IMG/VR virus record: IMGVR_UViG_3300047557_002530
Strand: one strand, 5' to 3'
Source: a virus
Lineage: Duplodnaviria > Caudoviricetes
Length of the DNA stretch: 64,000 bases
Shown in pieces: positions 59,925 through 60,198 of this stretch (the first letter of the stretch is position 1; every line of letters begins with the position of its first letter). The notes beneath the pieces are model-generated. The model did not search any database. It saw nothing but the letters and a program-made list of their open reading frames with translations, and was not told the origin of the DNA. The translations under genes and the position numbers were made by a program.

Positions 59925-59953
59925 TTGACAAATCTAAAAGGATTTGCTACTAT
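59925..59953 (+). promoter_or_regulatory. sigma70-type promoter for the tmRNA
   Basis: TTGACA-17 nt-TACTAT. Confidence 0.8.
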
Positions 59954-59959
59954 ATACAA

Positions 59960-60198
59960 TGTTCAAGAGGATGCAAAGTCTGTTGCTTCGGACTGGGGTT
60001 CGATTCCCCACACTTCCATTTCGAGGGGGTGCATTGGTTTCGACGGGGTGGTAAGGTTGTATCTGTTGACGGAACAAACAAACAAACGCAAACAACATTG
60101 TTGCATTCTCTCGCAGTAATACTACTGCCCTTGTTTAGAGGGACGGGGTGATAACGGCCCTGTAAAGAAAGCGTTACGGGCAGTGAAATGCTGCCTTT
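59960..60198 (+). ncRNA. ssrA: circularly permuted two-piece tmRNA (acceptor piece about 59960..60018, coding piece 60025..about 60198)
   Basis: T arm TGGGG-TTCGATT-CCCCA plus CACTTCC-A precedes GGGGGTG-CATTGGTTTCGAC. G3-U70 pair present. Tag frame 60088..60138 reads ANNIVAFSRSNTTALV*. Confidence 0.9.

Follow-up and report, generated by a model that had tools for sequence, protein, structure and literature searches.

The tmRNA is an RNA that frees stalled ribosomes. Phage-borne tmRNAs were first noted in mycobacteriophages (PMC4131195), and Buchholz et al. (2022) reported that phage genomes carried 53 permuted tmRNAs, 50 of which were aquatic (PMC9004378). Their Table S1 includes the cyanophages S-CAM1, S-CAM3, S-CRM01, and S-SSM7, with no structural or tag analysis given (PMC9004378). 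Our literature search turned up no work on the function of a cyanophage tmRNA; where papers paired cyanophage with tmRNA, the latter occurred only in reference lists or was reported absent, and nothing specific was found for S-CRM01. The gene described here lies in a 64-kb stretch of DNA that was analysed at its full length (hereafter the window). Because cyanophage permuted tmRNAs are already published (PMC9004378, Table S1), this gene is of a known kind, and the novelty implied by an initial annotation of the window was overstated. We consider it, with a probability of about 0.9, a predicted functional phage-encoded ssrA gene for a two-piece tmRNA of picocyanobacterial type, belonging to a lineage inherited within the T4-like cyanomyoviruses. 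What may be new is not the kind of tmRNA but the divergent tag endings kept by selection; our literature search found no paper describing such endings in cyanophages.

The source of the window is an uncultured freshwater T4-like cyanomyovirus. Positions 50000-59000 match nrdA, nrdB, gp61, and gp7 of S-SM2 and its relatives at about 77% identity (BLAST), in agreement with the phage origin proposed in the initial annotation. No near-identical record was found among deposited phages, the BLAST matches being partial (42-49% of the query). The phage is taken to be a freshwater one because at least six studies have freshwater or lake metagenomes that contain an exact copy of the tmRNA stretch. An RlpA-like protein gene lies near the tmRNA gene, which is placed within an array of tRNA genes; the larger features of the region are as follows.

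56121-56846 (-): SegE-like GIY-YIG homing endonuclease gene, directly before the array
58208-63938 (all +): array of 21 tRNA genes with interspersed promoters (ARAGORN, Rfam, and promoter scan)
about 60970-61396 (+): phage Dps/ferritin-like gene inside the array
62390-63457 (+): 6-phosphogluconate dehydrogenase gene, 3' of the Dps/ferritin-like gene

Several other observations concern the array itself. An abiF RNA motif (RF03085) was found at 58167-58203 (+; 40.3 bits against a cut-off of 37), directly 5' of the first tRNA of the array, a tRNA-Arg(TCT) at 58208; contig L024 carries the motif in the equivalent place (391-427, 47.5 bits). ARAGORN called a tRNA-His with the unusual anticodon ATG at 60386-60457 (+), which fell below the Rfam tRNA threshold. 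Its anticodon stem pairs poorly by eye, yet both L008 and L024 retain the tRNA, and the locus is covered by RNA-library contigs. Strong TTGACA-17-TAnnAT promoters (+) occur in the array at 58094, 59925, 60274, 60935, and 63816, and three of these (59925, 60274, and 60935) begin at the base directly after the end of a tRNA gene. The array seems to be divided into several short early-type transcription units.

ARAGORN called a permuted tmRNA ("tmRNA*") in the window at 59929-60229 (+), with the tag ANNIVAFSRSNTTALV*. The Rfam family RF01851 (cyano_tmRNA; cut-off 70 bits) matched 59944-60195 with 112 bits (E = 1.7e-29) over model positions 1-288, the full length of the model, and RF04321 (tmRNA_permuted; cut-off 47 bits) matched 59969-60119 with 85 bits. 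The features of the locus, from promoter to downstream tRNA, are listed below.

59925-59953 (+): sigma-70-type (early-type) promoter with 10 of 12 consensus matches and an extended TG
59925-59930 (+): -35 element TTGACA, separated from the -10 element by a 17-nt spacer
59945-59946 (+): extended TG
59948-59953 (+): -10 element TACTAT, with a predicted transcription start at about 59959-59961
59960-60018 (+): predicted acceptor piece of about 59 nt, with CCA added post-transcriptionally; its 5' end is placed from the promoter spacing and from phages with an abutting upstream tRNA
59960-59964 (+): conserved leader UGUUC, of which the GUUC part is 59961-59964
59969-59976 and 59983-59990 (+): 5' strands of helix P2, in the acceptor piece
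59994-60010 (+): T-arm, read from the DNA
60011-60017 (+): acceptor 3' strand CACTTCC, followed by the discriminator A60018
60019-60024 (+): intervening 6-nt spacer TTTCGA, read from the DNA and predicted to be removed during maturation
60025-60198 (+): predicted coding piece of 174 nt; its 3' end is placed from a predicted RNase P cut at the start of tRNA-Leu (G60199)
60025-60031 (+): acceptor 5' strand GGGGGTG (GGGGGUG in RNA), followed by the TGGTTTCGAC motif
60044-60051 and 60057-60064 (+): 3' strands of helix P2, in the coding piece
60072-60075 (+): GAAC, partner of the leader GUUC in a 4-bp helix between leader and coding piece
60088-60138 (+): tag reading frame, from the GCA resume codon to the TAG stop (60136-60138), encoding ANNIVAFSRSNTTALV (ARAGORN and codon pattern)
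60143-60176 (+): H-type pseudoknot 3' of the tag, from covariation among phages
60143-60149 with 60157-60163 (+): pseudoknot stem 1
60152-60156 (loop bases) with 60172-60176 (+): pseudoknot stem 2
60178-60195 (+): terminal hairpin GGCAG/CUGCC, followed by UUU and then tRNA-Leu (Rfam match and alignment)
60199-60273 (+): tRNA-Leu(UAG), directly 3' of the tmRNA (ARAGORN and Rfam)

The initial annotation had read a two-piece permuted tmRNA here from the letters alone and had proposed ARAGORN and the Rfam cyano_tmRNA model as checks; both were positive, and the structural alignment agrees with them. The order is the permuted one that it described: the T-arm and acceptor 3' half (59994-60018) lie upstream, followed by the 6-nt spacer, the commonest length in both phage and host copies, and by the acceptor 5' strand (60025-60031). 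The individual elements that it named were likewise recovered, namely the alanine determinant, with G3 (60027) paired to U70 (60015) in a 7-bp acceptor stem next to discriminator A60018; the 8-bp inter-piece pairing between GGATGCAA at 59969 and TTGTATCT at 60057; and the GCA resume codon at 60088 with a tag frame behind it. By direct reading, the UGGUUUCGAC motif stands 3' of the acceptor 5' strand and before the P2 3' strands; the coding piece also holds the D-loop analogue. CCA is absent from the DNA of the tmRNA gene and of most tRNA genes in the array, so a CCA-adding enzyme is needed. The remark that annotation overlooks permuted genes proved apt as well: in the GenBank records of S-CAM3 and S-SSM7, CDSs labelled "hypothetical protein" run across the tmRNA gene (BOW87_gp053, L001 1500-1640, and SSSM7_025, L246 1493-1711, respectively). 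The gene is unannotated in the records of S-CRM01, S-CAM1 (RefSeq), and Sf-FS3, and in the window spurious ORFs lie over it at 59819-60151 and 59874-60119.

To collect further copies of the tmRNA, IMG/VR and a set of bacterial genomes, one for each species, were searched with a degenerate DNA pattern, and the deposited phages S-CAM3, S-CRM01, Sf-FS3, S-SSM7, and AG-345-P14 were added. All 13 other phage copies tested passed the RF01851 cut-off, with 74-159 bits. On the alignment of 14 phage copies RNAalifold predicted 43 pairs, 19 of them with compensatory changes. Helix P2, which joins the two pieces, covaried strongly among these copies: alignment columns 43/135 hold AU in nine copies and UA in five, columns 48/131 hold AU in six and GC in six, and columns 62/118 hold CG in nine, UA in three, and AU in two. 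The 4-bp helix between the leader GUUC and the GAAC 3' of P2 also covaried across the 14 copies (U-A, U-G, and C-G). G3·U70 was invariant (14/14), the context of the resume codon was conserved in every copy, and the terminal hairpin was present in each.

The pseudoknot gave a comparable picture, stem 2 covarying among phages (TAACG/CGTTA, AGTCT/AGACT, TAAGTTT/AAACTTA, and GATCA/TGATC). In L005 and L019 the pseudoknot was missed by our script, stem 1 being imperfect, and stem 2 pairs by eye (GGTAA/TTACC and GGTCA/TGACC, respectively); L014, L012, and S-CRM01 appear to be without this pseudoknot. A natural close variant, present in RNA-library contigs of two studies, differs from the window at seven positions. 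Five of the seven fall on one or the other strand of pseudoknot stem 2, as two double compensatory changes and one change from A-U to G-U, with all five pairs kept; a sixth alters a tag codon without changing its amino acid. According to the Rfam alignment, two hairpins of the host type are deleted in the window, one at the 5' end and one that lies after P2 and before the resume codon (the latter at model positions about 145-159). Both are absent from 13 of the 14 phage copies, where the 4-bp helix between leader and coding piece is found instead. Because both host hairpins are missing, the activity of the window tmRNA could differ from that of the host tmRNA.

The initial annotation had also assigned the gene a promoter of its own, and here comparison among divergent phages is informative. 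The pattern TTGAC[AT]-17-TA[AC]TAT lies exactly 43 nt 5' of the T-arm in the window, L024, S-CAM3, L021, L003, and L004; the distance from promoter to T-arm is 44 nt in L010. The promoter belongs to the tmRNA gene, as shown by this fixed distance despite upstream flanks that differ among the promoter-bearing phages (some have a tRNA there and others protein genes). In L005, L019, L014, and S-CRM01 the 3' end of an upstream tRNA abuts the conserved leader in place of the promoter, and from either arrangement the acceptor piece would be expected to begin at the same position. RNA-library contigs from four metatranscriptome studies match 60037-60316 at 97-100% identity (ends and strand unreadable, DNA carry-over possible), and in X15 and X17 such contigs continue from the coding piece into the downstream tRNA-Leu. 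The acceptor piece was covered by none of the RNA-library contigs from the four studies. These contigs are compatible with expression of the tmRNA, short of proving it.

In RNA trees the host sequences grouped in a single clade (support 100/100) that was separate from the phage copies. The window fell within the phage clade and outside 95 host sequences, in a group of its own (100/99) comprising nine distinct sequences, all nine from tRNA-rich contigs. L014 stood among hosts (Cyanobium/Synechococcus) in one tree and, with a long-branch warning, with the phage copies in the other. The viral lineage of L014 and L228 retains the host-type hairpins and may represent a separate, more recent capture from the host. 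Other IMG/VR contigs (L006, L007, L009, L011, L016, L018, L022, and a further 31 loci) carry permuted tmRNAs of non-cyanobacterial type, with tags such as ANDERFALAA, as in Rhodocyclaceae; unlike the cyanophage tags, nearly all of these end in AA. A typical Cyanobium-type tmRNA that groups with freshwater Synechococcus was found in L092, a contig labelled as part of a MAG of Sphingobacterium thalpophilum (Bacteroidota), into which it was probably binned by mistake.

The tag frame of the window is closed upstream by an in-frame TGA (60067-60069), seven codons 5' of the resume codon, with no start codon between, and so it cannot be read as an ordinary ORF. Codon usage was analysed in the window subclade (17 loci, 10 distinct sequences), where the peptide is conserved while its codons vary: Arg9 is encoded by CGC, CGT, or AGG and Ser8 by TCT or TCG, and at the end of the tag Leu15 is encoded by CTT, CTA, TTA, or TTG and Val16 by GTT or GTA. 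Across all phage copies, the first nine codons of the tag vary mainly at third positions. Judged from the aligned sequences, this pattern shows purifying selection at codon level on the tag in the window subclade, and because the peptide is kept through synonymous changes, the tag appears to be translated and its Leu-Val ending to be under selection. Translation from GCA 60088 is thus supported as a prediction by the codon pattern; given the closed frame, selection on the peptide would be explicable only by resumption during trans-translation. A 4-bp hairpin enclosing the stop codon was considered as an RNA-level cause of the Leu-Val ending and rejected, as it is broken in the close relative L024 and the Leu codons vary at positions 1 and 3.

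The endings of host and phage tags differ markedly. Every one of 100 host loci (100 species sampled, 12 distinct tags) has a tag that ends in Ala-Ala, with VAA in all. The 77 viral loci yielded 33 distinct tags, of which seven end in Ala-Ala; the other 26 end in LV (7), AV (6), TA (6), TV (5), AL (1), or PA (1). The window tag ends in ALV, without the hydrophobic Ala-Ala degron, which is a departure within the family and no ground for excluding the gene from it. The endings require at least 13 changes on the tree, and Ala-Ala was therefore lost several times; the non-host endings are preserved through synonymous changes. We suggest, tentatively and at somewhat less than even odds, that cyanophage tmRNAs have repeatedly swapped the Ala-Ala degron for other endings (Leu-Val here; Ala-Val, Thr-Val, and Thr-Ala elsewhere) that are kept by purifying selection, that phage-rescued proteins are marked unlike host-rescued ones, and that the phage would in this way reprogram the fate of truncated proteins beyond adding rescue capacity. 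If true, phage-tagged proteins might escape host degradation of the ClpXP type or go to another protease; proteases may recognise non-polar C-termini all the same.

The marine lineages (L001, L149, L160, L169, L245, L246, L247, and others) carry a conserved in-frame extension of seven codons directly 5' of ANNIV, A[NK]TSD[ST]A and variants of it, in which the first codon is Ala. Long insertions within the tag (...REFARTSELATA) occur in some marine lineages. The real resume codon of the marine lineages may be the upstream Ala codon, giving tags of 21-31 residues.

No member of the SmpB family was found in the complete genomes of S-CAM3 and S-CRM01 or in two large viral contigs, by a search that was positive for the host control and for 10 named control genomes, and a host SmpB query matched nothing within the window. 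Because no SmpB gene was found in the window or in the two complete relatives, the phage RNA is predicted to rely on host SmpB as its partner, as had been anticipated in the initial annotation. Transcription would start at the gene's own sigma-70-type promoter, and read-through from the upstream tRNAs may contribute as well. Host RNase P would cut 5' of G60025 and 5' of tRNA-Leu, and the second of these cuts would define where the coding piece ends. The 6 nt that follow A60018 would be trimmed off as a trailer, and CCA would be added by a host enzyme. The two pieces would then be held together by helix P2 and by the 4-bp helix between leader and coding piece, for which covariation argues. The host alanyl-tRNA synthetase would charge the RNA via G3·U70, and host SmpB and EF-Tu would bring the charged RNA to ribosomes stalled on broken mRNAs, where translation would resume at GCA 60088 and append ANNIVAFSRSNTTALV, in keeping with the codon pattern. 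The most plausible benefit to the phage would be extra ribosome-rescue capacity while host mRNA is degraded and host transcription is shut off. The role put forward in the initial annotation, surviving host defences that cleave tRNA or mRNA, is speculation.

Such a gene could also serve the phage in a different manner, as a decoy whose tRNA-like part would sequester the SmpB of the host and so inhibit its trans-translation, the tag region being irrelevant, as has been proposed for the TLD-only RNA of mycobacteriophage DS6A. Inhibition of the DS6A type is on record (PMC4131195), the phage is without an SmpB of its own, and the host-type hairpin 5' of the tag is missing. A pure decoy is nevertheless disfavoured, and we allow it only a small chance, because a tag peptide conserved through synonymous changes, a resume-codon context conserved in 14/14 copies, and a pseudoknot preserved 3' of the tag by compensatory changes would not persist in one. 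Compensatory changes that maintain helices across a deep, phage-only clade already contradict the idea that the locus is a decaying relic, a captured piece of host ssrA that no longer functions. Phages do capture fragments of host tRNAs and tmRNAs, and the window copy shares only about 61% identity with those of hosts, but all of its defining elements are intact, and of the seven differences in the close natural variant five keep pairing and one is synonymous; we regard a relic as highly improbable.

As little credence is given to a host chromosomal gene, in which case the window would be cyanobacterial DNA or a mis-assembly with no phage involved. The name of the Rfam family, taken from the cyanobacteria, points that way, but the flanks of the gene are those of a T4-like cyanophage, the array of 21 tRNAs resembles those on many IMG/VR contigs, the window copy falls in the phage clade and not among the 95 host sequences, and the host-specific hairpins are absent from it. 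A functional phage tmRNA of the two-piece type is the reading that we retain.

With this locus, a well-documented freshwater example joins the short list of cyanophage tmRNAs, and annotation practice is corrected in that the "hypothetical protein" CDSs of the S-CAM3 and S-SSM7 records are the tmRNA gene. The phage lineage retains every element of the rescue RNA and yet appears to alter the end of the tag under selection, which was never seen in the sampled hosts. This raises a testable question, whether phage-tagged proteins meet a different fate in the infected cell, and the answer matters for understanding phage control of translation and of amino-acid recycling in the most abundant phototrophs.

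Among described systems, the two-piece tmRNA of the picocyanobacteria (Prochlorococcus, Synechococcus, and Cyanobium; RF01851) has in common with the window the gene order, the T-arm and D-loop-analogue sequences, G3·U70 with discriminator A, helix P2, the 6-nt spacer, and the first half of the tag (ANNIV.FSR). It is only about 61% identical to the window copy and has the 5' hairpin and the hairpin between P2 and tag, which the window does without; its tags end in Ala-Ala (100 loci sampled) where the window tag ends in Leu-Val, and the window gene lies in a phage tRNA array and in a separate clade. The mycobacteriophage Bxz1 group, Bacillus phage G, and DS6A (PMC4131195) resemble the window in bearing an ssrA without a phage smpB. 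Their RNAs have, unlike that of the window, an unpermuted gene order and unrelated hosts; a tag frame, conserved in the window gene, is lacking from the TLD-only RNA of DS6A. The OM43 phage Melnitz and the pelagimyophages (PMC9004378) match the window in carrying a permuted tmRNA just 3' of an early-type promoter in a T4-like aquatic myovirus. Those tmRNAs are of alphaproteobacterial type with a glutamine riboswitch in the 3' domain (PMC9004378), while the window tmRNA is of cyanobacterial type; no riboswitch, the glnA type included, scored above the Rfam gathering thresholds anywhere in the window.

The tmRNAs of S-CAM1, S-CAM3, S-CRM01, and S-SSM7 belong to the same phage-borne lineage and have the same architecture as that of the window. 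The conserved promoter is common to S-CAM3 and the window, and in S-CRM01, as in the window, an RlpA-like gene and then tRNAs lie near the tmRNA. The known cyanophage tmRNAs are only 62-68% identical to the window copy, and the seven-codon in-frame extension 5' of the tag in marine lineages is absent from the window. The tags also end differently, in STVAA in S-CAM3, LVAAL in S-CRM01, and ELVTA in S-SSM7, as against Leu-Val in the window.
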